Assembly (NCBI GenBank): GCA_965249275.1
Contig: CBDFLQ010000007.1
Coordinates: forward strand, 416,001-480,000
Source of the DNA: Dehalococcoidia bacterium
Lineage (GTDB): Bacteria > Chloroflexota > Dehalococcoidia > Plut-88900
DNA: 64,000 nt
Direction of reading: 5' to 3'
Below the pieces are notes generated by a model. The model saw nothing but the letters and a program-made list of their open reading frames with translations. It ran no database searches and was not told the DNA's origin. Position numbers and translations under genes: made by a program. Shown here in pieces: positions 19,524 through 45,559 of this stretch (position 1 is the stretch's first letter; each line of letters opens with the position of its first letter).

Positions 19524-19790
19524 TCGTGCACCCCCCGTCGATCGAGTCCCCTCGGCCTGTTGTCCGCCGCCGAGCTCGGACCAGGCTACCCTACGGCACC
19601 CAGAATTGACCGCTTACCGTTGCTTCCTTCCGGACCTGGCGGGGTTCACAGTTTTCTGCCGCGTAGGACCCAATCTTCAGCGCCCGCCGAACGGGTACAG
19701 CGTCCAAAGGTCCAGGACCTCTAGGGGGAATTCAGTCCCGCTATAGCGGATTGCGGGTTCAGGGCACCGCTAGCTCCCCACCTAGCACGA
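19524..19790 (-). ncRNA. ffs: Large (Alu-domain, Bacillus-type) SRP RNA
   Basis: Minus strand GTGCTAGGTGGGGAGCTAGCGGTGCCCTGAACCCGCAATCCGCTATAGCGGG... and helix 8 GCCAGGTCCGGAAGGAAGCAACGGT; complementary ends GATCGTGC/GCACGATC. Confidence 0.92.
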
Positions 19791-30953: not shown

Positions 30954-31029
<76 letters not shown>

Positions 31030-35940: not shown

Positions 35941-35989
35941 GACCGCTCCCAAGAACCTCCCCCCATCCCTTTCTCTCATGCCATTCCGC

Positions 35990-36060
35990 GGGGTAGGGCC
36001 GCTCACCCTGAGCACCGTCGAAGGGTCGAGCGGGGGTGGCCCATGTACAGCCAATCCGTC
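35990..36060 (+). repeat. REP-like module, copy 1
   Basis: GGGCCGCTCACCCTGAGCACCGTCGAAGGGTCGAGCGGGGG...GCCAATCCGTC, near-identical to 43371-43441. Confidence 0.85.
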
Positions 36061-36104
36061 ACGCCCGCCTTCATCCCAACCCAGCTTCTTTACACTGTCA
36101 TTCC

Positions 36105-37160
36105 TGTAAGTGTTAGGTAATTCGTTGACAGATTGGTATAAGAGGCCAACACCAATCTGGAGGCGAGAATGCGAGACAATAGCAAGGATCTCACCCTTGA
36201 ACGGAACTACATTCAGAAGTGGCGGTTCCTCATCCATGAGTATCAACTGGTCAAGGCAGGGAAGCATCCCCGTTTCCGCTTCGCCCAGGACTTCTACTCC
36301 TTCCACGGCACCAGCCGTCAGACCTTTGCCAAGTACTACAACCGATTCCTCCTCTCCCCCTCCGACAACGCCTTCCTCCCCCGTAAGCGGGGTCCCGGGT
36401 GGAAGTCCCGCCGCACCCTGCCCTACATTGAGCAGAAGGTCATCAACGAGCGCCTTAACGGTACCAACCGTTACGAGATCTATGCCATACTCAAACCCAT
36501 CCTTAAACACAACACCCCTAAGCCCTCCACCATCTACGCCATCACCAGACGCCACGGTTTCAATAGGCTCACAAAGCCGATGCAGCAATCGAAGCGCAAG
36601 ATCATCAAGACCCGGGCAGGAGAGCTGGGCCACCTGGACAGCCACTACCTCAGCCGGGATACCATCGTGGGCACCAAGCACCGCTACTACCTGGTGGGCC
36701 TCATCGACGCCTACACCCGTCTGGCCTGGGCCGAAGTGGTCGGAGACATCAAGAGTCTCTCCGTTATGTTTGCTGTATTGAAGTCCATCAACTTCCTCAA
36801 TGCGGAGTACGGCATCCAATTCGAGGCTATCCTCACCGACAACGGCCCCGAGATGGCCTCCCCAAGGAACACCGAGGGCCACCCCATGGAACGGATGCTC
36901 AATGAGCTGGGCATAAAGCACCGCTACACCCGCCCTTATAGGCCCCAGACCAACGGGAAGATAGAGCGGTTCTGGAGAACCTTGAACGAGGACCTGCTGG
37001 AGGGGACAACCTTCGAATCGGTCTCGGAACTGAAGGACGAGCTTCAGCAATACCTGATCTACTACAATACTCAGAGACCCCACCAGGCAATGGACGGAAA
37101 GACCCCTTTGCAAACCCTTAAATCTCTCTAATTCTGTCAACGAATTACCTGACATCTACA
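36105..37160 (+). mobile_element. IS481-family insertion sequence (1056 bp)
   Basis: IRs TGTAAGTGTTAGGTAATTCGTTGACAGA / TCTGTCAACGAATTACCTGACATCTACA; ATTCC duplicated at 36100-36104 and 37161-37165. Confidence 0.92.
36169..37131 (+). CDS. IS481-family DDE transposase
   Basis: GHLD, LTDNGPE, PYRPQTNGKIERFWRTL, YN..RPH. Confidence 0.93.
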   Translation: MRDNSKDLTLERNYIQKWRFLIHEYQLVKAGKHPRFRFAQDFYSFHGTSRQTFAKYYNRFLLSPSDNAFLPRKRGPGWKSRRTLPYIEQKVINERLNGTNRYEIYAILKPILKHNTPKPSTIYAITRRHGFNRLTKPMQQSKRKIIKTRAGELGHLDSHYLSRDTIVGTKHRYYLVGLIDAYTRLAWAEVVGDIKSLSVMFAVLKSINFLNAEYGIQFEAILTDNGPEMASPRNTEGHPMERMLNELGIKHRYTRPYRPQTNGKIERFWRTLNEDLLEGTTFESVSELKDELQQYLIYYNTQRPHQAMDGKTPLQTLKSL

Positions 37161-37214
37161 ATTCCGAGGCTCCGCGAGGAATCTGGGGCGGGGCCTCCCT
37201 CCCCCCTAGGTAAC

Positions 37215-37255
37215 GACATATGAGCCATGCTGCTCCGCAGCATGGCTCATATGTC
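37215..37255. repeat. Perfect 19-bp inverted repeat
   Basis: GACATATGAGCCATGCTGC-TCC-GCAGCATGGCTCATATGTC. Confidence 0.85.
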
Positions 37256-37350
37256 AATAAAACAGGGGGGCGGGGCGGGGTCCTGTCCCCTCTCCCTCTG
37301 ACGGGAGAGGGCTAGGGTGAGGGTGATTCCCCAAAAGTGACACGATCCCC

Positions 37351-37380
37351 TTGACTAAATCAAAACACATGTACTATATT
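37351..37380 (+). promoter_or_regulatory. sigma70 promoter with overlapping LexA-like box, copy A
   Basis: TTGACT-N18-TATATT with AAAC-ACAT-GTAC abutting the -10; same geometry at 44858-44887. Confidence 0.6.
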
Positions 37381-38188
37381 GCTGCCCAGGCCCGACTTCC
37401 TATGTCGGCCCTATCCAAGGAAAAGGATTAAAAGAGTCCCATGAGTCGCACAAGCCTTCATAGGCCCCGTCCTCCCCGTGCGGTATGGCTCCGCCCGGCC
37501 ACAGGCACGCGCCTCTTTCCCTGCCCCTTTCCACCCATCGTCCCCCTTCACACCCCCCACTACAAGCGCTGCCCAAAGGCCCATCGCCTCCGCCTCCGCA
37601 GCGATCAATCACTGTCCCCCCCGGTCCACGTGACCGGCTATGGAAGGTTCCCGGACAAAAAACGGCTTGCCCTTTCCAAGGGCTCCTGCCAAGTGCGCGC
37701 TGCACTCAACCGGCGCAACACCCTCGCCCTCTCGGGCGGCGCCCACGAGCACGGCGTCAAGTTGCTCAACAGGGCCATCGTGCCCGGAGACTCCACCGTC
37801 GTTGCCCTCGGAGAGGCCATGCCACACGGCGACGGCAGAGAGTCCACGCCCCCATATCTCCGTATGGCTGGGCACTTCTGGTGGCCGAGACTGCCCCACA
37901 CCGAGATTCCCTCGCGTCTCTTCCACATCCTCTCAGAAGCACGGGGCTGTCGCAAAGCCGGCGTCGATGTGGAACATCCGCTGTGGCGGACAACACTCAT
38001 CGGTACAGGCGTCGCCGTCTTCCTGCGCAACCGTCCGGGACCTTCCATCCCCTCCCTCTCCCTCTCTATCTGTCCCCTCCCCCGTAGGGGCGACCGGCTG
38101 GTCGCTCTGGGGTGGGGCTCGCCTATTGTCCCCCCGCCACCCACGAAAGGAGCCCGCCTACCCGCCAACGCCCACAACTGAATAACCG
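37381..38188 (+). other. Uncharacterised C-rich element body A (homologous to 44888-45516); low-complexity ORFs in all three forward frames
   Basis: Co-linear matches to copy B (ATGGAAGGT, TCCA(A)GGGC.CCTGCC, GGACCTTCCATC, AACTGAATAACCG). Confidence 0.55.
38084..38118 (+). repeat. GTAG-type REP
   Basis: GTAGGGGCGACCGGCTGGTCGCTC...; second copy at 45526-45559. Confidence 0.75.
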
Positions 38189-38230
38189 CCGCCCCTACAT
38201 TCAGGCGTATTTACCGGTCAAAGGCCGGGG

Positions 38231-39205
38231 TTAACGGGTCTCCCGCCGCGCTACCCACCTGGGCTGGTCGCAGATGTCGCCCAGGAACTCCATCACCGTG
38301 TGGGCCGCCAGGTAGGAGGTCACCCCCGTCCCGACGTCCAGCTGCGGATTAACCTCGCACAGGTCAAACCCTATGATGTCGGCGTGCTCGGCCAGCACCT
38401 TCAGGGTCTTCTGGAGTTCCGCGTACATCATCCCGTTCGGCTCCGCCGAGACGCAGCCCGGGACCAGGCTCATATCCAGCACGTCTATGTCTATGGACAC
38501 GTAGCACCTGGCATTCGATGGCAGCTCCTCCACCAGGTCCTTATGCCCCCTGTCCCGGAACTCTTCCATGCTTATTACGTGATTCCCGTCACGGAACGAG
38601 TCATCGATGTTCTCCTTGATATTACGCAGGCTGCGGATTCCAACCTGATATATCGACTCTACGTTCTGCATTGCGTTGATGTGCCGAAAGGCATGACCAT
38701 TGGTGTATTCAAACCCGTGCATAAACGGCGCGTAGTCTATGTGGGCGTCGAAGTGGAAGACGTACAGCGGGTCTTCGTAGGCCCGGACCACGGGGAAGGT
38801 GATCGCGTGGTCCCCGCCCAGAACGACGGGCATGGCGCCCCTCTCCAGAACCTTCTTTGTCATGGCGGTGATGTTGTAGAAGGAGTCCTCGGCGTTGGTC
38901 GGTATTATCGGTGCGTCACCGACATCCGCGATACGCCCGTTCTTCATCTCGTATTCCAGGTATTCCTTGTCCTCGGAGAAGTTGTAGAACCCCTCCTGTC
39001 CGAAGCGCAGCGAGTGCTGCCTGATGCTCTGGGGCGCGAACCGTGCGCCGCCCATGAACGGCGAGCCTTCGTCCGTCGGGGCGCCCATGACCGCGATGTC
39101 GGCCTCCAGCTGGTCCAGGTCCGTCACGATCCTCGACCTCAAGAACGAAGGAATCCCGCTGAACGGCCAGACTTTCGCGCCACGGTACATGTCATGTTGC
39201 TGCAT
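38231..39205 (-). CDS. Agmatinase/arginase-family ureohydrolase
   Basis: GARFAP, GGDHAIT, DAHID, SIDID metal-ligand motifs. Confidence 0.9.
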   Translation of the reverse strand: MQQHDMYRGAKVWPFSGIPSFLRSRIVTDLDQLEADIAVMGAPTDEGSPFMGGARFAPQSIRQHSLRFGQEGFYNFSEDKEYLEYEMKNGRIADVGDAPIIPTNAEDSFYNITAMTKKVLERGAMPVVLGGDHAITFPVVRAYEDPLYVFHFDAHIDYAPFMHGFEYTNGHAFRHINAMQNVESIYQVGIRSLRNIKENIDDSFRDGNHVISMEEFRDRGHKDLVEELPSNARCYVSIDIDVLDMSLVPGCVSAEPNGMMYAELQKTLKVLAEHADIIGFDLCEVNPQLDVGTGVTSYLAAHTVMEFLGDICDQPRWVARRETR

Positions 39206-39302
39206 TTCTTAGTCCTTTATGTAAATTGAGGCCGCTTTATGTAAATCCTGCCTCGTGTCCCTCGCCAGTCTAGGGGGTTAGGGTGAGGATAAACTTGGCC
39301 CC

Positions 39303-40382
39303 TTAATTCGCGCTGAACCCGTACAAGGAAGCGGCGTTTGAGCTGACTATCTGCTGCTTGTGGTCCTCCTGCACGCCCTCGAACTGCCTCTCTATCGCCT
39401 CCCGGGACTTGGGCCACGTGCCCTCGTGGTGCGGGTAGTCGTTGCCCCAGAGCAGGCACCCGGCGCCCGTGAACGAGATGTTAGACAACCCCACCGCATC
39501 CTCCCCGAAGGTCGCATATCCCTGCCTTCGGAAATAATCGCTGGGCTTCATGTCCAGCTTGGGCCTAACATACATGTGGTGCTTGTCCGCTCCTTCATCC
39601 ATCGCGAGCATGTTCCAGGCAATCCACCCTATCCCCGACTCCACGATCACGAACTTCATCTTCGGGTGATTCATCAGTACCCCCGAGGAGCACAGGTACG
39701 TCGTTACGTCTATCCCGTCGACCAGAGCGCCCATCACGTAGTTAATGATCGCCCCACCCGGCCCCCTCTCAATGCGCGGGTCACGGCCGCTGCTTATGTG
39801 AAAGTTCGCCGGCAGCCCCACTTCCTCTATTGCACTCCAGAGGGGGTCGTACTCGGGTCTGTTGTAGGGGAGGGGCTGCTTGCTGGGCAGGAACATCGAC
39901 CCCATCCCCATCTTCGCGGTCCGGTAGACCTCTTCAACCGCGCCCTGGATATCGATCACCGGAATAAGAGCCGCCAATGCGAACCTCTCCCTGTGTGCTC
40001 CAAAGAGCTCAGCAGCCCAGTCATTGTAGGTCCGTGCCGCGGCCAGCTGGAAACCCGGGTCCGGCGACGCCGTCAATTCCAGCCCGTAGTTCGGGTAGAT
40101 CACCTCTGCCGCTACACCGTCCGTTTTCTGTGCCTCAAGCCGGACGTTGACATTCCATCCACCCAAGACCGCTTCCTCTCGTAATAGGTCATCCTTCCCC
40201 ATCTCTTCCGTGCCCAGCTCGACCTTCCTCGGGCGCAGGCCATCCCTGATTTCCAGCAGCTTCCCATCAACTACCTTCCTGTGGGGCGCCTTCGCCCGGT
40301 ACTCCGTCGGCATCCTCTCCTGCCACATGCTCAGCGGTTCGTCCACGTGAGAGTCCGCCGATATCAGTTTGTAGTCCATCAT
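39303..40382 (-). CDS. Amidohydrolase_2 family protein
   Basis: ISADSHV, YDPLWSA, FH, VESGIGW, PSDYFRRQ, WGNDYPH.EGTWP. Confidence 0.88.
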   Translation of the reverse strand: MMDYKLISADSHVDEPLSMWQERMPTEYRAKAPHRKVVDGKLLEIRDGLRPRKVELGTEEMGKDDLLREEAVLGGWNVNVRLEAQKTDGVAAEVIYPNYGLELTASPDPGFQLAAARTYNDWAAELFGAHRERFALAALIPVIDIQGAVEEVYRTAKMGMGSMFLPSKQPLPYNRPEYDPLWSAIEEVGLPANFHISSGRDPRIERGPGGAIINYVMGALVDGIDVTTYLCSSGVLMNHPKMKFVIVESGIGWIAWNMLAMDEGADKHHMYVRPKLDMKPSDYFRRQGYATFGEDAVGLSNISFTGAGCLLWGNDYPHHEGTWPKSREAIERQFEGVQEDHKQQIVSSNAASLYGFSAN

Positions 40383-40440
40383 GCCACCACTCCTTTCAGG
40401 TCGTGCTCACCCGAATATTATCCACGGCTAGGCGTCCAGT

Positions 40441-41649
40441 TTAGCCGAATGCCCCGTCTTCCTTCAAACGGGCAAACTCCTCAGCGCTGAACCCCCCGAC
40501 ACCCGTCATCACCTCTTCGTTATGCTCTCCGAGGCCCGGCGCCGCTGCCACTCTGCCCACGGGGGTCCCGGAAAAGGCCAGGGGAACACCCGCGGCGGGT
40601 ATCCTGCCCCGCGTGGGGTGGTCTATGTCCGTGACGTAGTTGTTGGCGCGGGCCTGGGGGTCCGCCGCCAGTTCCGCCATCGAGTTGACCGGCGAGTACG
40701 CCATCCCCAACCCTGCCTCCTCAAGCGTATTCACCCACTCGGCCAGCGTTTTCCTGGCGAATATCTCGTCGAGTTGGCCCATCAGCCCTGCCCACCCCTC
40801 ATCCTGCGGAGACGTCGCCGCCAGTTCCCCAGCCCCGATTGCGCTGCAAAACTCCTCCCACCATCGGTCGGGGTCCGGTTCGCAGAACATTAGCCACCGG
40901 CCGTCGGCGCACTGGTACCAGTTGTATAGCAAACTTGTGGATTGCGACCTGTCATTCCTGGCGTGTAAAGGAGAACCTTCGCCCGGCGGCAAGTTCAAGT
41001 CCGGGAATCTCTCCGACCACAAAGCATAGTTAACCGCGCCATGCTGGAAGTGCATCGCGCTCCCCAGCAGCGACCCCTGCACCATCTGCCCGTGCCCCGT
41101 CCGCTCCCGATTCACCAGTGCCGCAAGGATTCCATATGTCATTACCGTGCCCGTGTTCTGGTCGAAAAGGCCGCCCTCCAAAAGAAGCGGCTCGGCCTCC
41201 AGGCCTCCACTTATCATTGCGGTGAAACCGCTCCGCGCCTGGACCAGCGCCTCGAAGGCCCTCCGGTCCTTGTCCTTACCCAGAGGTCCCCAGGCTCCAA
41301 CGTGCCCGTAAACGAGCCTGCTGTTTATCCCGGAGAGAGTCTCGTAGTCTGCACCCAGGCGCTCCAGCAAAGCCGTATGGAAATTCGATACGAAGACATC
41401 CGCCCTGCCGACCAAACGATACAGCGCTTCCCTCCCCGACTCCTTCTTCAGGTCAAGCGTCACGCTCTTCTTGTTCCGGTTCACGGCGTCGAACCAGAAG
41501 GTGCCCTTGGACCGGGTCGGGTCTCCGCCGTCGGGGCGTTCTATCTTGAGCACCTCGGCCCCCAGGTCTCCCAATATGTAACCGATGGGAGGCCCAACGT
41601 GTATAACCGCCATCTCCACGACTCTTATTCCATCTAATGGTCCCGGCAT
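40441..41649 (-). CDS. CaiB/BaiF class III CoA transferase
   Basis: GPLDGIRVVE, LGAEVLKIE, NRNKKSVTLDL, APGLGEHN. Confidence 0.9.
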   Translation of the reverse strand: MPGPLDGIRVVEMAVIHVGPPIGYILGDLGAEVLKIERPDGGDPTRSKGTFWFDAVNRNKKSVTLDLKKESGREALYRLVGRADVFVSNFHTALLERLGADYETLSGINSRLVYGHVGAWGPLGKDKDRRAFEALVQARSGFTAMISGGLEAEPLLLEGGLFDQNTGTVMTYGILAALVNRERTGHGQMVQGSLLGSAMHFQHGAVNYALWSERFPDLNLPPGEGSPLHARNDRSQSTSLLYNWYQCADGRWLMFCEPDPDRWWEEFCSAIGAGELAATSPQDEGWAGLMGQLDEIFARKTLAEWVNTLEEAGLGMAYSPVNSMAELAADPQARANNYVTDIDHPTRGRIPAAGVPLAFSGTPVGRVAAAPGLGEHNEEVMTGVGGFSAEEFARLKEDGAFG

Positions 41650-41716
41650 AGCTCCTCCTCAGTCGAGCGATTGGGTTTTCTTCTATATTGGCGGGGCATT
41701 ATGTTAAGAAGTCCAA

Positions 41717-43120
41717 CTAGTTCTTCGCAATCTCGGGAATGAATCCCGCCCAGGGCCGAGCCCGCTCCAAAGCCGCCGAGGCCCGCAGAACGGTCATCTC
41801 GTCCCCCCACCTCCCCACCACCTGCAGTCCTATCGGCAGCCCGTCCGTCGAGAATCCGCAGGGCACGTTGGCCCCGGGGTTTCCGGCTATGTTGAAACTT
41901 GCGGTGAAAGGCGCTGCTCCCCACAGCTTACTGACCTCCTGCCCGGCAATCTCCCGTGGCCGAGCCCCGATGGGATATGCAGGCACGGCGGTCGTGGGAG
42001 TCAGGAGCAGGTCATACTTCTCAAAAAAGTCTTCCATCCGGGCCCGGAATTTCCACAGCTTCGACATGGCCCGAGCGTAGTCAGTACCCATTGCCCGCTT
42101 CCCGGCCTCCAGGGTCGACTTCACGTAGTTCATCAACTGGTCTCCGTGGCTTTCCAGCAGTGACCCATTGTTTGCGTACTCTTCCACTATGACTATGGGA
42201 CCAAATATCCCGAATGGCGCCCCCGACTCCGGCGTCGCATCCTCCAGTGAGCATCCCATCCCCTCTAAAATCTCTGCCGTCTGCCGTGTCTTAATCAACA
42301 CCTCCTCGTCCACCACCCCATACCCCAAATCCGAGCTCCACGCTACTCTCAAACCCTTGACCTCGCCGTCCAGAGCTTCAAGAAAGTCCGGCGGCGCCGA
42401 GCGTATTGCCAGGCTGTCCCGGGAATCGTGGCCCGAGATCTGGTTCAGCATCAGTGCCGCATCCCTCACGCTCCGGCTCATCGGCCCGCTGTCCGAAAAC
42501 AGCGCCCAACCACCGTCCTTTGACGGGACCCTGCCGTGCGTCGGCTTGATCCCGTACACACCACAGAATGATGCAGGCACCCTGATCGAGCCTCCGCCGT
42601 CGCTTCCCGTAGCCAGTGGGCAGATGTATGCGGCAAGCGCAGCCCCCGACCCGCCACTCGAACCGCCGCTTGTCCGACCCGTGTCCCAGGGGTTCCGGCA
42701 GTCGTCTCCCAGCCGGTTCTCGGTGCTCGTAGACTGCCCAAATTCTGGGGTGTTCGTCTTCCCGAGAACTATTGCCCCGGCTTTCCTCATCCTCTCCACG
42801 ATTATGGAGTCTTCAGCGGGCACGTTGTCCTTGAATGCCAGCGAGCCAAATGTCGTCCTGATCCCTTTCGTTGCCTCCAGGTCCTTCACGGCCAATGGAA
42901 TGCCGTGGAGGGGCGGCATATCCGGCCCTGCGCTCTTCTCCGCCTCCCTCGCCGACTCCATAGCCTCGTCACCGCACACCGTGAGAAAAGCGTTGAGAGT
43001 CGGGTTCAGGGTCTCGATCCTCCGCAGGCAGGCCTCGGTTAGTTCCACCGGCGACACCTGACGGGACGATATCAGGCCGGCCAGTTCTGTCGTGTCTTTC
43101 CTGATTAGATCATCGGTCAC
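41717..43120 (-). CDS. Amidase-signature family amidase
   Basis: LHGIPLAVKD, GKTNTPEFG, GGSSGGS, GSDGGGSIRVPA. Confidence 0.92.
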   Translation of the reverse strand: MTDDLIRKDTTELAGLISSRQVSPVELTEACLRRIETLNPTLNAFLTVCGDEAMESAREAEKSAGPDMPPLHGIPLAVKDLEATKGIRTTFGSLAFKDNVPAEDSIIVERMRKAGAIVLGKTNTPEFGQSTSTENRLGDDCRNPWDTGRTSGGSSGGSGAALAAYICPLATGSDGGGSIRVPASFCGVYGIKPTHGRVPSKDGGWALFSDSGPMSRSVRDAALMLNQISGHDSRDSLAIRSAPPDFLEALDGEVKGLRVAWSSDLGYGVVDEEVLIKTRQTAEILEGMGCSLEDATPESGAPFGIFGPIVIVEEYANNGSLLESHGDQLMNYVKSTLEAGKRAMGTDYARAMSKLWKFRARMEDFFEKYDLLLTPTTAVPAYPIGARPREIAGQEVSKLWGAAPFTASFNIAGNPGANVPCGFSTDGLPIGLQVVGRWGDEMTVLRASAALERARPWAGFIPEIAKN

Positions 43121-43370
43121 AGATCGGGTTCCTCCGGTGCAAGGTTCGGCCTAGCAGGTTCATTCGATAAACTGGACACGGAAAATGAGCGAAAGCGGGT
43201 CGGCCCGATTATAGGAATCGCCCGACAACACGGTCAAGGTTGACGCCCCTTCTACCCCACCCCCCTGCTGAGGGGAGCCTGTCCGCCTAAGGCGGAGCAT
43301 TCCGGCAACCAACCCCTCGTCGTTCCTGCGCAGGTCGCAGATGCGCCGAGGCGTGCAGGGCCTCATCCCC

Positions 43371-43441
43371 AGGGTGGGGCCGCTCACCCTGAGCACCGTC
43401 GAAGGGTCGAGCGGGGGGAGGCCCCGCACTGCCAATCCGTC
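43371..43441 (+). repeat. REP-like module, copy 2
   Basis: Near-identical to 35990-36060. Confidence 0.85.
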
Positions 43442-43517
43442 GTGTCCCCCCAACCCCAGAGGCGGCCAGGGCGGGGCGTCCTGTCCCCTCTCCCTCGATG
43501 GGAGAGGGGACTGGCCC

Positions 43518-44818
43518 GGTACAGACCGGGCAGAAAGGTAACACATAAACCGGGGACATGGGTAACACATCGTGGGATTGTATTAGGCAATCCCAGAGGA
43601 GGAAGATGTGTTGCCTTGGAAAGACACGAGCATAGAATCGGAGCGGTTGCAGTTCATCGAGCGTCACACTGCGGGAGAGGAGACTATTGCTGAGCTGTGC
43701 CGCCGGTCCGGGATCAGCCGCAAGACGGGCTACAAGATAATCGGCCGATACGAGGCGTATGGTGAGGACGGTCTACTTGACCTAAGCCGGGCTCCTCACA
43801 GCCATCCCAACGCCACTTCCATAGAGGTGGCTAAGCGTATCATCGAGGCGAAGCGCACCCATCCCACATGGGGCCCGAAGAAGATCGTCGCCTGGTTGCA
43901 TTCCATCGAGCCCTACGTGCCCTGGCCTTCCTCCAGTACTGCGGGCGCCATACTGGACCGTGTGGGTCTGGTGAGGCGGCGCAAGCGGCGGCGCAGGGCT
44001 ACACGCTGGGGCGAGCCCTTCGCCCACGCCCGGCACCCCAATGACGTGTGGGCCATCGACCTGAAGGGCTGGTTCCGCACGGATGACGGAATGCGGATAG
44101 ACCCCCTTACAGCCCAGGACGCCATGTCCCGCTACTTACTGGTATGCGACCCTCTCGACCGCCCTGCCGGCCCGGAAGTCAAGCGCTCTCTGGAGAGAAC
44201 CTTCCGAGAGTACGGCATCCCTCGGGCCATACGCACCGACAATGGTCCGCCCTTCGCCAGTGTGGGTCTGGGCAGCCTCTCACCACTCTCAGCATGGTGG
44301 GTCAAGCTCGGGATCGTACCCGAACGCATAGAGCCCGGTCACCCCGAACAGAATGGACGCATCGAGCGCCTTCACCGGACCCTCAAGGCCGAGACCGCAA
44401 CACCTCCAAAGGCCAACTGGAGACGACAACGCAGAGCCCTCGAACGCTTCAGACACACCTACAACTTCGAGAGGCCACATGAGGCCCTGGGGCAGCAACC
44501 ACCAAGCCGGCTGTACACGCCCTCGATCAGACCCTATCCCACACGTATCAGCTCGCCCGAGTACAACGCCGGTGTCACCGTACGTAGTGTCCGCAGCAAC
44601 GGACAGATCAAGTGGAAGGGAGATATGCTCTACGTGAGCGAGTCCCTCAAGGGCGAACCCATCGGCCTGGTCCAGATAGACGAACGAACCTGGTCCATAC
44701 AGTTCGGGCCACTCATCATCGGACTCCTTGATGACCCCACCAGAAGGGTCGACAAAACCCCAGTCAAAGTGTTACCTATGTCCTCGGTCTAACTGTTACC
44801 CATGTCCCCGGTCGTACA
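43518..44818 (+). mobile_element. IS481-family insertion sequence (~1.3 kb)
   Basis: Ends with tandem ACCGGGGACATGGGTAACA-type repeats in inverted orientation; right end ...GTACA; left end reads GGTAC; no clear target duplication. Confidence 0.85.
43608..44792 (+). CDS. IS481-family DDE transposase
   Basis: MPWK-type start, HTH (ELCRRSGISRKTGYK), WAIDLKG, RTDNGPPF, NGRIERLHRTLK, YNFERPHEAL. Confidence 0.93.
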   Translation: MLPWKDTSIESERLQFIERHTAGEETIAELCRRSGISRKTGYKIIGRYEAYGEDGLLDLSRAPHSHPNATSIEVAKRIIEAKRTHPTWGPKKIVAWLHSIEPYVPWPSSSTAGAILDRVGLVRRRKRRRRATRWGEPFAHARHPNDVWAIDLKGWFRTDDGMRIDPLTAQDAMSRYLLVCDPLDRPAGPEVKRSLERTFREYGIPRAIRTDNGPPFASVGLGSLSPLSAWWVKLGIVPERIEPGHPEQNGRIERLHRTLKAETATPPKANWRRQRRALERFRHTYNFERPHEALGQQPPSRLYTPSIRPYPTRISSPEYNAGVTVRSVRSNGQIKWKGDMLYVSESLKGEPIGLVQIDERTWSIQFGPLIIGLLDDPTRRVDKTPVKVLPMSSV

Positions 44819-44857
44819 GTGAGGGTGATCCTTCTTGGCAAAAGTGACACGAACCCC

Positions 44858-44887
44858 TTGACCAGACTTGTACACATGTACTATATT
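44858..44887 (+). promoter_or_regulatory. sigma70 promoter with overlapping LexA-like box, copy B
   Basis: TTGACC-N18-TATATT containing GTAC-ACAT-GTAC. Confidence 0.6.
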
Positions 44888-45516
44888 CACCCCCGACTAG
44901 CTCGTCACTCACCCTAAACCCAAGGAGGAACCACAACCCAGGGGGAACCACAGCCCCGGCCCACACGAGGACTCAACGTCTAAGCCCATCCCAAAGGGCG
45001 GCCCACACGCCGCCCCACGGCTCAAGCGAACGCCGCCATCTCCTCATACCAAGGGCCCCGGCTCACCCCTCCCCCCACCACCCAGGCGATGGAAGGTCCA
45101 CAGACTATGCTCGGCAGGCCCCGTCCAGGGCCCCTGCCGATTCAACGCTTCCCATTACCGGATGCGTTTACTCCGGCCCATTGCGCGCCGGTTTCCCGGG
45201 TAGGTCAACCGACCCCCGGTTTAGCAAGGCCCTCGTGTCCTTGTTTGTCCCGCCGTCCCCGCCATCCGTCTACCCGGCGGATGCACCGGGACGCCGGTTA
45301 TGAAAGTCCGCCTCAGGCGGCATGTTCCCCGTCAGCGGTCCGGTCAAGTGCCGCTCACGGAGGGATCGGCCCCACACAACCCTGACTGCAGCCGAGAACA
45401 TGTGGGGATAATCCAGCCCGGCGCCGACGGCTCGGCAACAACCTCCGGCCTGGATCCTAGTCTCGGACCTTCCATCGCCTGCCCCCCCAACAAACCAAAC
45501 AAAAACTGAATAACCG
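44888..45516 (+). other. Uncharacterised C-rich element body B (homologous to 37381-38188)
   Basis: Same co-linear motifs; AAGGAGG without a suitably spaced start codon; only short ORFs. Confidence 0.55.
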
Positions 45517-45525
45517 TCCTCCCCT

Positions 45526-45559
45526 GTAGGGGCGACCGGCCGGTCGCCCGGGGTCGGGC
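45526..45559 (+). repeat. GTAG-type REP
   Basis: GTAGGGGCGACCGGCCGGTCGCCC palindrome. Confidence 0.75.

Follow-up and report, generated by a model that had tools for sequence, protein, structure and literature searches.

A dispersed repeat family of probable phage-terminase origin in one genus of Dehalococcoidia

Two intergenic loci and the family they belong to

What kind of element occupies loci A (35990-38188) and B (43371-45559), two intergenic regions that share a series of motifs in the same order? Both lie in the window analysed here, a 64,000-nt stretch of contig CBDFLQ010000007.1 from a Dehalococcoidia bacterium whose genome, G000, comprises 2.9 Mb in 7 contigs with 59% G+C and is 87% complete. 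The original prediction, which could not assign the two copies to a named family, offered a choice between damage-inducible long non-coding RNAs (ncRNAs), hypervariable open reading frames (ORFs) and non-autonomous mobile elements. The lack of an assignment has been superseded, as the family appears to descend from a cassette composed of a promoter, a small ORF and the gene of a terminase large subunit (TerL). This terminase origin is well supported by sequence comparison, and A and B are probably members of a genus-wide family of 0.65-0.85 kb deletion derivatives of such a phage-type packaging cassette.

The scheme that we favour starts from a parent of ~2 kb, in which a 137-aa ORF and a 462-aa TerL follow a sigma-70-type promoter whose spacer holds a lexA-operator-like dyad. 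The derivatives would have retained the promoter, a fragment of the TerL nuclease domain and the TerL stop position, now the end motif ...CTGAATAA, and two TerL segments would have grown into the 11-17 bp inverted repeat by which the core is closed. One kind of derivative (A-type) keeps a single long open frame that evolves neutrally, and the other (B-type) is frameless with a conserved leader. Each copy would be transcribed from its own promoter into a C-rich RNA, probably de-repressed with the SOS response, in which the inverted repeat may form a stem. At the DNA level, the copies would spread and vanish, with frequent exchange of modules.

All of the motifs first reported as shared by the two loci are present, at or within one base of the positions given for them and far above chance. 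The GCTCACCCTGAGCACCGTCGAAGGG module and ACACATGTACTATATT were found in both loci, the promoter block AAAAGTGACACGA.CCCC plus TTGAC at 37333-37356 in A and 44840-44863 in B, ATGGAAGGT at 37640 and 45089, GGACCTTCCATC at 38038 and 45465 (previously given as 45464), AACTGAATAACCG at 38176 and 45504, and the GTAGGGGCGACCGGC.GGTCGC repetitive extragenic palindrome (REP) at 38084 and 45526. A direct alignment of the two bodies recovered a near-identical promoter block plus scattered conserved blocks. Previously unnoticed was that ATGGAAGG... is complementary to ...CCTTCCAT, the two forming the arms of a single long-range inverted repeat; in copy A it measures 14-15 nt and has one bulge, and in copy B it is a perfect 17 bp. 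Both loci are composites of REP mosaics, a secondary IS481-type insertion and one repeat copy of 0.65-0.85 kb, and the two copies consist of the following parts.

37333..37380, + strand: copy A promoter, with the GTGACAC block, -35 box TTGACT (37351-37356), operator-like AAACACATGTAC (37363-37374) and -10 box TATATT (37375-37380)
37441..38181, + strand: copy A open frame of 246 aa, starting at an ATG with a Shine-Dalgarno sequence (SD-ATG), ending at a TGA within AACTGAATAA and partly from TerL nuclease-domain coding sequence
37640..37654, + strand: 5' arm ATGGAAGGTTCCCGG of the copy A inverted repeat, which pairs with the 3' arm in the predicted fold and corresponds to TerL codons ..TGKGRF..
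38035..38048, + strand: 3' arm CCGGGACCTTCCAT of the copy A inverted repeat, corresponding to TerL codons ..GPSI..
38084..38105, no strand: REP GTAGGGGCGACCGGCTGGTCGC inserted in the copy A tail; the tail of the G005 ortholog is broken by other REPs
38176..38188, + strand: terminal motif AACTGAATAACCG, where both copy A and the segment missing at empty sites end on the right, at the TerL stop position (GGCTATGAATAA in full-length cassettes)
44840..44887, + strand: copy B promoter, with the GTGACAC block, -35 box TTGACC (44858-44863), dyad GTACACATGTAC (44870-44881) and -10 box TATATT (44882-44887)
44888..45082, + strand: copy B leader, consisting of a 5' hairpin, an invariant AAGGAGGAA that is not followed by a start codon, and a conserved GAGGACTCAACG...CCATCTCCTC block
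45083..45481, + strand: copy B core without a conserved frame; its closing inverted repeat of 17 bp is CAGGCGATGGAAGGTCC / GGACCTTCCATCGCCTG
45482..45516, + strand: copy B CA-rich tail, ending in AACTGAATAACCG (45504-45516)
45526..45547, no strand: REP GTAGGGGCGACCGGCCGGTCGC after copy B, outside the unit; flanks differ among copies

Far from being limited to these two copies, the family has ~70 members in G000, about 1.5% of the genome. The promoter block occurs there 17 times exactly and 33 times with up to two mismatches, its 19-nt core 63 times with up to three, and GGACCTTCCATC has 43 exact matches. An nhmmer profile of the B-type leader detected 54 copies, to which 13 further copies with an A-type leader and ATG, two full-length cassettes and one copy with the small ORF only have to be added; a looser pattern gave 79 family-type promoters. 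The predicted dispersal was borne out across genomes as well, since a covariance model of the leader found 23-69 copies in each of the nine genomes of the genus (421 matches in all) and none in three other genera of the same taxonomic family. BLAST with copy B detected the family in 9 of 31 relatives, all within the genus, and an exact-pattern scan with one genome per species returned at least 82 stretches, those among the matches listed all coming from metagenome-assembled genomes of Dehalococcoidia bacterium. As far as searched, the family is restricted to one genus of Dehalococcoidia, which is sponge-associated.

The unit starts just upstream of the -35 box and consists of the sigma-70-type promoter with its lexA-operator-like dyad, a leader, a core of 300-540 nt closed by the inverted repeat of 11-17 bp, and a CA-rich tail, after which it ends at ...CCCACAACTGAATAA (the general end motif being ...CTGAATAA). 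Promoter and terminal motif are both conserved parts of this unit, as originally proposed; in an ending variant, a small hairpin is inserted within the end motif. Both stem arms are present in 62 of 63 copies examined (54 B-type and nine A-type), the exception lying at a contig start. The cores of 138 unique copies fall into at least 11 unrelated-looking clusters, and modules have been exchanged between copies in a mosaic fashion. In the core at the B locus of G005 (L059), a GGTAGGTC.ACCG.CCCCCGG segment is doubled, and at the A locus of the same genome (L057) a block of ~120 aa of the frame is repeated; cores change through duplication as well as deletion. BLAST of the G000 cores of the 138-copy set against the remaining genome returned additional partial copies and small REP insertions only, and no antisense targets. 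The orientation of copies relative to GC skew showed no clear tie to replication direction.

An extra 3' module, GGTGTGTCACTAATCTACCGAACGAGTACA, is attached to 24 of the G000 copies, with a TTG at a fixed distance in 16 of the 24 and a full -35/-10 arrangement in 13 of them. Between the end of this 30-nt module and the -35 box of the following host gene there are 4-5 nt; two such genes are tRNA genes. At the B locus of G003 (L061), the module abuts a host promoter that also occurs at this place in G008, where no element was found. It could be an upstream promoter element or a marker of a preferred insertion point.

A phage-type terminase cassette as the probable parent

A six-frame search with the A-type product matched two long open frames. 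One of them belongs to the cassette at G000:C7:110675-112617, which spans ~2 kb; a family promoter made up of CCCAAAAAGTGACACGAACCCATTGAC, GTACACATATTC and TATATT, in this order, precedes a 137-aa ORF and a 462-aa ORF. The 462-aa protein matched terminase large-subunit families in PHROG with E values of 2.6e-6, 3.8e-6 and 2.5e-4. Because the PDB sequence profile was weak (E 0.34-0.45), a fold search was used, and Foldseek with the AlphaFold model (mean predicted local distance difference test score, pLDDT, 61) returned T4 gp17, D6E, HK97, Sf6 and T7 as the best PDB matches, with E values of 3e-11 to 6e-6 over ~470-530 aligned columns. The modelled fold match takes in both an N-terminal ASCE (additional strand, conserved glutamate) ATPase and a C-terminal RNase H-like nuclease domain. 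Some homologs of the protein carry Terminase_6C (PF17289), and a Pfam search with the G000 protein itself gave no match. As modelled, the 462-aa protein is a TerL.

The relation of the repeat copies to this gene can be followed at the protein and DNA levels. The copy A frame is 49% identical to TerL aa 194-365, and for A-type ORFs in general the identity to TerL aa 194-373 is 47-75%. In nucleotide alignments, three tested A-type copies matched the cassette promoter (81-87% identity) and TerL nt 111818-112320 (68-90%), and a fourth matched TerL only. The promoters of copies A and B are 81% identical over 54 nt and 85% identical over 48 nt, respectively, to that of the full-length cassette. Both arms of the inverted repeat fall in TerL nuclease-domain codons (5' arm TGKGRF, 3' arm GPSI), where the parent gene has a complementarity of 6-7 bases as against 11-17 bp in the derivatives. 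The end motif ...CTGAATAA takes the place of the parent's TATGAATAA, the last codons and stop of TerL. B-type copies have the promoter and both arms in common with the cassette. At G000:C6:411198-411650 (L154:244-651), a family promoter is followed by a 135-aa homolog of the small ORF only and then by unrelated genes on the opposite strand, which is a third kind of truncated cassette.

Full-length promoter-to-TerL units number two in G000 and four in G007, and the sequence that they share runs exactly from the promoter block to the TerL stop between unrelated flanks. The G000 cassette sits among the housekeeping genes UbiA, YidC and Jag. In G007, one unit lies 760 nt from a portal gene on the same strand and the others lie elsewhere. 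An SPP1_portal gene is also found downstream of TerL on the same strand in G011 (E 2.7e-16), where one small helix-turn-helix (HTH) ORF separates the two, and in G025 (E 4.1e-32), where the gap holds an opposite-strand gene. The portal gene is single-copy in all eight other genomes of the genus, and none was found in G000, which is 87% complete and has one TerL copy at a contig end. Many TerL homologs in public data are on contigs of 1.5-4 kb.

Beyond the genus, the TerL gene occurs in 52 of 81 sampled Dehalococcoidia genomes, nearly always once. A TerL-like plus SPP1-type portal module with small upstream ORFs was observed in G011 (L167:6351-9656) and G025 (L166:4138-10196), and across the class the module occurs in 52 of the 81 genomes, mostly in single copy, with ~45-57% protein identity. 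Known here by its TerL and portal genes alone, it appears to be a packaging module of phage origin that has long been retained, and is a possible gene-transfer-agent (GTA) candidate.

In many phages, a pac-like recognition site lies within the terminase region, and the derivatives might be packaging-initiation seeds, that is, a pac-like site spread round the chromosome from which a GTA-type machine packages host DNA after SOS induction. The class-wide, mostly single-copy TerL-portal module and the single-copy portal gene of the genus fit such a machine, as do the same TerL-internal segment and the invariant 11-bp inverted repeat held by all derivatives and the lexA-operator-like dyad in the promoter. 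However, a packaging seed has no need of a retained promoter or of an open A-type frame, and with purely inferential support we consider this explanation very unlikely.

Promoters, open frames and RNA structure

The promoter of the family contains the dyad [GA][AT]AC-N4-GT[ATG]C in 51 of the 79 family-type promoters, at one fixed offset (offset 7) in 49 of these 51, compared with 0.15 in shuffled sequences. The dyad occurs as 30 sequence variants, with G at the first position in only 37 promoters; GTACACATGTAC, GAACACCCGTGC and AAACACATGTAC are family-type examples. Both lexA and recA are present in G000. The lexA promoter has GAACGCCCGTTC just after its -10 box, and the recA promoter has GAACACATATCC in its spacer, much like the GTACACATATTC of the cassette. 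Given that the dyad sits at one offset in most family promoters and resembles the motifs at lexA and recA, reading it as a putative LexA operator is reasonable, and this assignment is plausible on the basis of the motif.

The claim that the bodies are frame-free holds for copy B, in which no frame is conserved, but not for copy A, whose 246-aa frame has counterparts open in all 14 A-type copies analysed. In total, 15 A-type copies were found, each with an SD-ATG and a frame of 216-409 codons that continues past the 3' arm, one of the frames running off its locus. For the 14 copies with both arms, we compared stop codons with the expectation from a first-order Markov model: frame +1 contains none, against 46.9±6.7 expected, and the other sense frames contain 53 and 46. 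In all 14 copies, the ATG and the 3' arm are separated by a length of 2 mod 3, and 35 of 38 pairwise indels are multiples of 3. Substitutions, on the other hand, are spread over the three codon positions (836/942/783), and the median ratio of nonsynonymous to synonymous substitution rates (dN/dS) is 0.85 over 91 pairs. The AlphaFold model of the product has a pLDDT of 51.5 and one helix of 4 residues, and the product has no match in Pfam or PHROG. The frame is kept against stops and frameshifts, with neither purifying selection nor a foldable product, and the description as hypervariable ORFs falls short in that the frame stays open while its dN/dS is close to neutral. Judged from these patterns, selection is apparently for openness of the frame and not for its sequence. 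Gene conversion from intact terminase genes, or a need for translation as such (for instance against Rho), are two ideas that could account for the open frame. In public data, 379 proteins predicted by gene callers are related to it.

The near-neutral dN/dS, the product without a fold (pLDDT 51) and the loss of the frame in B-type copies would also be expected of plain pseudogene debris, namely decaying duplicates of the cassette spread by REP-mediated ectopic recombination and without function. Of the 30 GCTCACCCTGAGC REPs, about half (by inspection) stand just upstream of an element, and modules are exchanged between copies, which suits this explanation. Decay, however, would not leave zero stops where ~47 are expected and indels almost all in frame, nor would it retain promoters and dyad, lengthen the inverted repeat from the 6-7 bp of the parent to 11-17 bp, or let the family persist in nine of nine genomes of the genus with 23-69 leader copies each. 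We regard debris as improbable.

B-type copies were rejected as a coding gene. Their lengths are uniform mod 3, stops interrupt all three frames in 117 of 135 copies, and stops are not underrepresented in any frame (374, 425 and 388 by frame). Among 13 close B-type copies, 53 of 71 indels have a length that is not divisible by 3, variable columns are distributed by phase as 73/70/67, and the ORF from the ATG in the stem ranges from 4 to more than 200 codons.

What B-type copies conserve instead is a leader of 165 nt, found genus-wide, in which 7 of 22 consensus pairs show compensatory changes. The predicted fold of copy B is more stable than those of shuffled sequences (z = -5.9). The inner pairs of the closing stem covary, with GGTCC/GGACC and GACGC/GCGTC as the two types, and the outer 11 bp are invariant among 138 unique copies. 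Mismatches in this invariant stem are G.U rather than A.C at a ratio of 32:9, which points to selection on the sense-strand RNA, with the reservation that the copies are related. The stem was also considered as an inverton. Comparisons among the 138 copies gave 2680 same-strand and 24 opposite-strand high-scoring segment pairs, all 24 from one false detection, and since no inverted cores exist, the inverted repeat is not a switch.

Contigs from four of four RNA libraries in two studies lie on the leader and core of copy B, two of the libraries being labelled sponge metagenome. One 505-nt contig covers 45014-45479, and the summed contig depth peaks over 44760-45127. A contig of RNA-library run X18 links 43570 to 44769, leaving out the 1198-nt insertion sequence (IS) of locus B. 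Stretches of the flanking genes are uncovered in some runs, which, these being contig data, is uninformative on expression. A search of Rfam 15 with the window, both bodies and 18 other copies gave nothing on the elements at gathering score, with chance-level matches only at E<=10 or 0.5. Elsewhere in the window, a large bacterial signal recognition particle (SRP) RNA lies at 19524-19790 (- strand, 188 bits) and a tRNA-Arg(TCT) at 30954-31029 (+ strand).

These features can be taken to mean that the family is a cellular, multi-copy structured ncRNA whose copies are retained for a function of the RNA itself, such as that of a decoy or sponge for a binder of C-rich RNA (for example Rho) or for a regulator of the terminase operon, with the terminase origin being incidental. 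The retention of promoter and operator across 30 dyad variants, the genus-wide leader with compensatory changes in 7 of 22 pairs, the invariant AAGGAGGAA without a start codon after it, the significant B fold and the contigs that cover B argue for it, as do the CA-rich tails and the C-rich composition of A-type copies (C 37-41% versus G 24-26% in 14 copies). However, with at least 11 core clusters there is no single conserved fold, core covariation is weak, the A fold is not significant, and neither an Rfam match at gathering score or at E<=10 nor complementarity to other genes was found. We regard an ncRNA of this kind as rather unlikely and continue to prefer descent from the packaging cassette.

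Gain and loss of copies and comparison with known systems

As the option of a non-autonomous mobile element predicts, comparison of filled and empty sites among relatives showed that copies are present or absent at orthologous positions. Locus A holds a copy in G000, G002 and G005, whereas G001, G003 and G008 have an empty site. At the empty sites, the segment corresponding to 35963-38188 of the window is missing, and convergent M24 peptidase and arginase-family genes have only a hairpin between them; in G002 and G005, the A-type copy lacks the IS. The missing segment terminates on the right at the final base of AACTGAATAACCG, and on the left it takes in ~320 nt of REPs. At locus B, copies with different cores are found in G000, G001, G002, G003 and G005, just upstream of the conserved promoter of a CCG-domain gene. 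No element was found there in G008, where TTGAATAAT is a possible remnant, so that loss is indistinguishable from non-insertion at this locus. The different cores at locus B, together with the module mosaics, suggest frequent exchange between copies. The sequences upstream of both promoters, which lie outside the family unit, are arranged as follows.

35963..36104, no strand: left REP mosaic of locus A, including GCTCACCCTGAGCACCGTCGAAGGG, within the segment absent from the empty sites of relatives, whose flanks abut at query positions 1216 and 3443 in G001 and G003
36105..37160, + strand: IS481-type insertion of locus A, with a transposase ORF (36169-37131) and rve_3/rve/rve_2 domains; secondary, outside the family unit
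37161..37332, no strand: REP mosaic of locus A with CCCCTCTCCC..GGGAGAGGG..GTGAGGGTGA palindromes, upstream of the promoter; upstream sequence varies among family copies
43371..43570, no strand: REP mosaic of locus B, with the GCTCACCCTGAGC... module and the left half of a CCCCTCTCCC..GGGAGAGGG palindrome
43571..44768, + strand: second IS481-type insertion, in locus B, with a transposase ORF (43608-44792 in the ORF listing) and rve, HTH and LZ_Tnp_IS481 domains; secondary

The locus A IS has many near-identical copies in G002 and G003 and is absent at the orthologous A locus of G002 and G005; the locus B IS is absent from the orthologous loci of G001, G002, G003 and G005. The two IS481-type insertions are different, and each sits within REP palindromes immediately before a family promoter. 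A third family copy (G000:C7:522211) has the same IS end upstream of it, which suggests that the IS target REP mosaics. By inspection, a family promoter follows within a few hundred bases downstream of about half of the 30 genome copies of the GCTCACCCTGAGC..TCGAAGGG REP (up to two mismatches; 35990-36040 and 43371-43420 in the window).

Presence/absence polymorphism (locus A empty in three of five relatives, no element found at locus B in one of five) and the presence of a longer coding element in the same genome, of which the copies are deletion derivatives, are features of miniature inverted-repeat transposable elements (MITEs). The terminal repeats of MITEs are lacking, as the only long inverted repeat is internal, and promoter block and 3' extension share an 8-bp AGTGACAC/GTGTCACT match only in the 24 copies with the extension. 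An autonomous/non-autonomous transposon system could nonetheless be envisaged, in which the TerL-type ATPase-nuclease, together with the 137-aa protein, cuts and moves DNA, and in which A- and B-type copies, as MITE-like non-autonomous derivatives, are recognised by their promoter-proximal block, invariant inverted repeat and end motif. We regard this as unlikely, and to the same degree that the 2 kb unit is a new self-propagating element with a phage terminase as its 'transposase' and ~70 copies mobilised after SOS induction. The graded series of copies (two full-length in G000 and four in G007, 13 A-type, 54 B-type) would be natural for such a system, and so would full-length copies with sharp common boundaries and unrelated flanks, their positions (one G007 copy 760 nt from the portal gene and the others elsewhere, the G000 copy among housekeeping genes), the filled and empty sites among species, the repeat-like occurrence of public homologs on contigs of often 1.5-4 kb and the invariant outer 11 bp of the inverted repeat. 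Outside the genus, however, the gene is mostly single-copy (52 of 81 genomes of the class) and stands in a packaging module with the portal gene; no target-site duplication or end recognition was found, we know of no terminase that acts as a transposase, and the different cores at locus B fit recombination between copies equally well.

Several findings weigh against the cassette-derivative explanation as we have framed it. On the side of descent, B cores are more remote and match TerL only weakly and in one core cluster (E 1.5e-7 and 7.3e-7), with one cluster matching the A-type product at E ~1e-7, an nhmmer profile of the B leader gave nothing better than E 0.18 against full-length cassettes, the A and B leaders have no convincing alignment with each other, and simple decay does not account for an open A frame with a dN/dS of ~0.85. 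On the side of RNA, the fold of copy A is no better than those of shuffled sequences (z = -0.95), and in the B core compensatory changes affect 4 of 108 predicted pairs with an unfavourable covariation term (+1.51). Since the outer 11 bp of the stem never vary, a protein-recognised DNA site fits as well as an RNA helix, and the mismatch ratio overstates independent events because of the relatedness of the copies. The RNA support consists of contigs of a multi-copy repeat, for which DNA carry-over is possible. As for mobility, the insertion at locus A is composite because the missing segment includes the REPs, and no target-site duplication (in the empty/filled comparison of site A), no terminal inverted repeat of convincing length and no transposase were identified.

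In the literature searched, including the parts of PMC11109978 available to us, there was no report of such a family or of terminase-derived repeats. If its origin is read correctly, this would be, to our knowledge, the first dispersed bacterial repeat family traced to a phage terminase gene, which is unusual as a source of bacterial repeats: in one symbiont genus, dozens of derivatives with their own promoters would have arisen from a conserved and mostly single-copy packaging module of phage origin. These neutrally evolving frames would then account for at least 379 'hypothetical proteins' of public metagenomes. The family raises the questions of whether a terminase can move DNA within a genome, whether the SOS response switches on ~70 extra promoters, and why the openness of a frame is kept without its sequence.

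Among known systems, OLE, GOLLD and ROOL are large, ornate bacterial ncRNAs represented in Rfam. B-type copies resemble them in a length of ~600 nt, a many-helix predicted fold closed by a long stem and the lack of a frame, whereas the present family has no Rfam match, tens of copies per genome, a core that is not conserved between subfamilies and a derivation from a protein gene. Mobile elements and prophages controlled by LexA (SOS) exist as well, and the GAAC-N4-GTTC-type dyad between -35 and -10, resembling the operator at the organism's own lexA, is reminiscent of them; it differs in that many family copies have GTAC or AAAC half-sites, and it is known here from sequence alone. REP and REPIN elements, which RAYT transposases mobilise, are similarly dispersed, intergenic and rich in palindromes, and are interleaved with the family at both loci. 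REPs, however, are tens of bases long and contain no promoter or gene fragment, and at these loci they are neighbours or insertions and not the unit.

The likeness to MITEs lies in the many short copies from a longer coding parent, with both ends kept, the subfamilies, the intergenic positions and the variable presence among genomes. In contrast to MITEs, the parent of this family encodes TerL and no recognised transposase, and the copies have an internal inverted repeat instead of terminal ones, show no target-site duplication and each contain a complete promoter. With the terminase modules of phages, prophages and GTAs, the family shares a parent protein that has the terminase fold over its full length and, in other genera, a portal gene downstream on the same strand. 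Unlike in those modules, the promoter-to-TerL unit in this genus has been duplicated away from the portal gene and has given rise to dozens of truncated copies.

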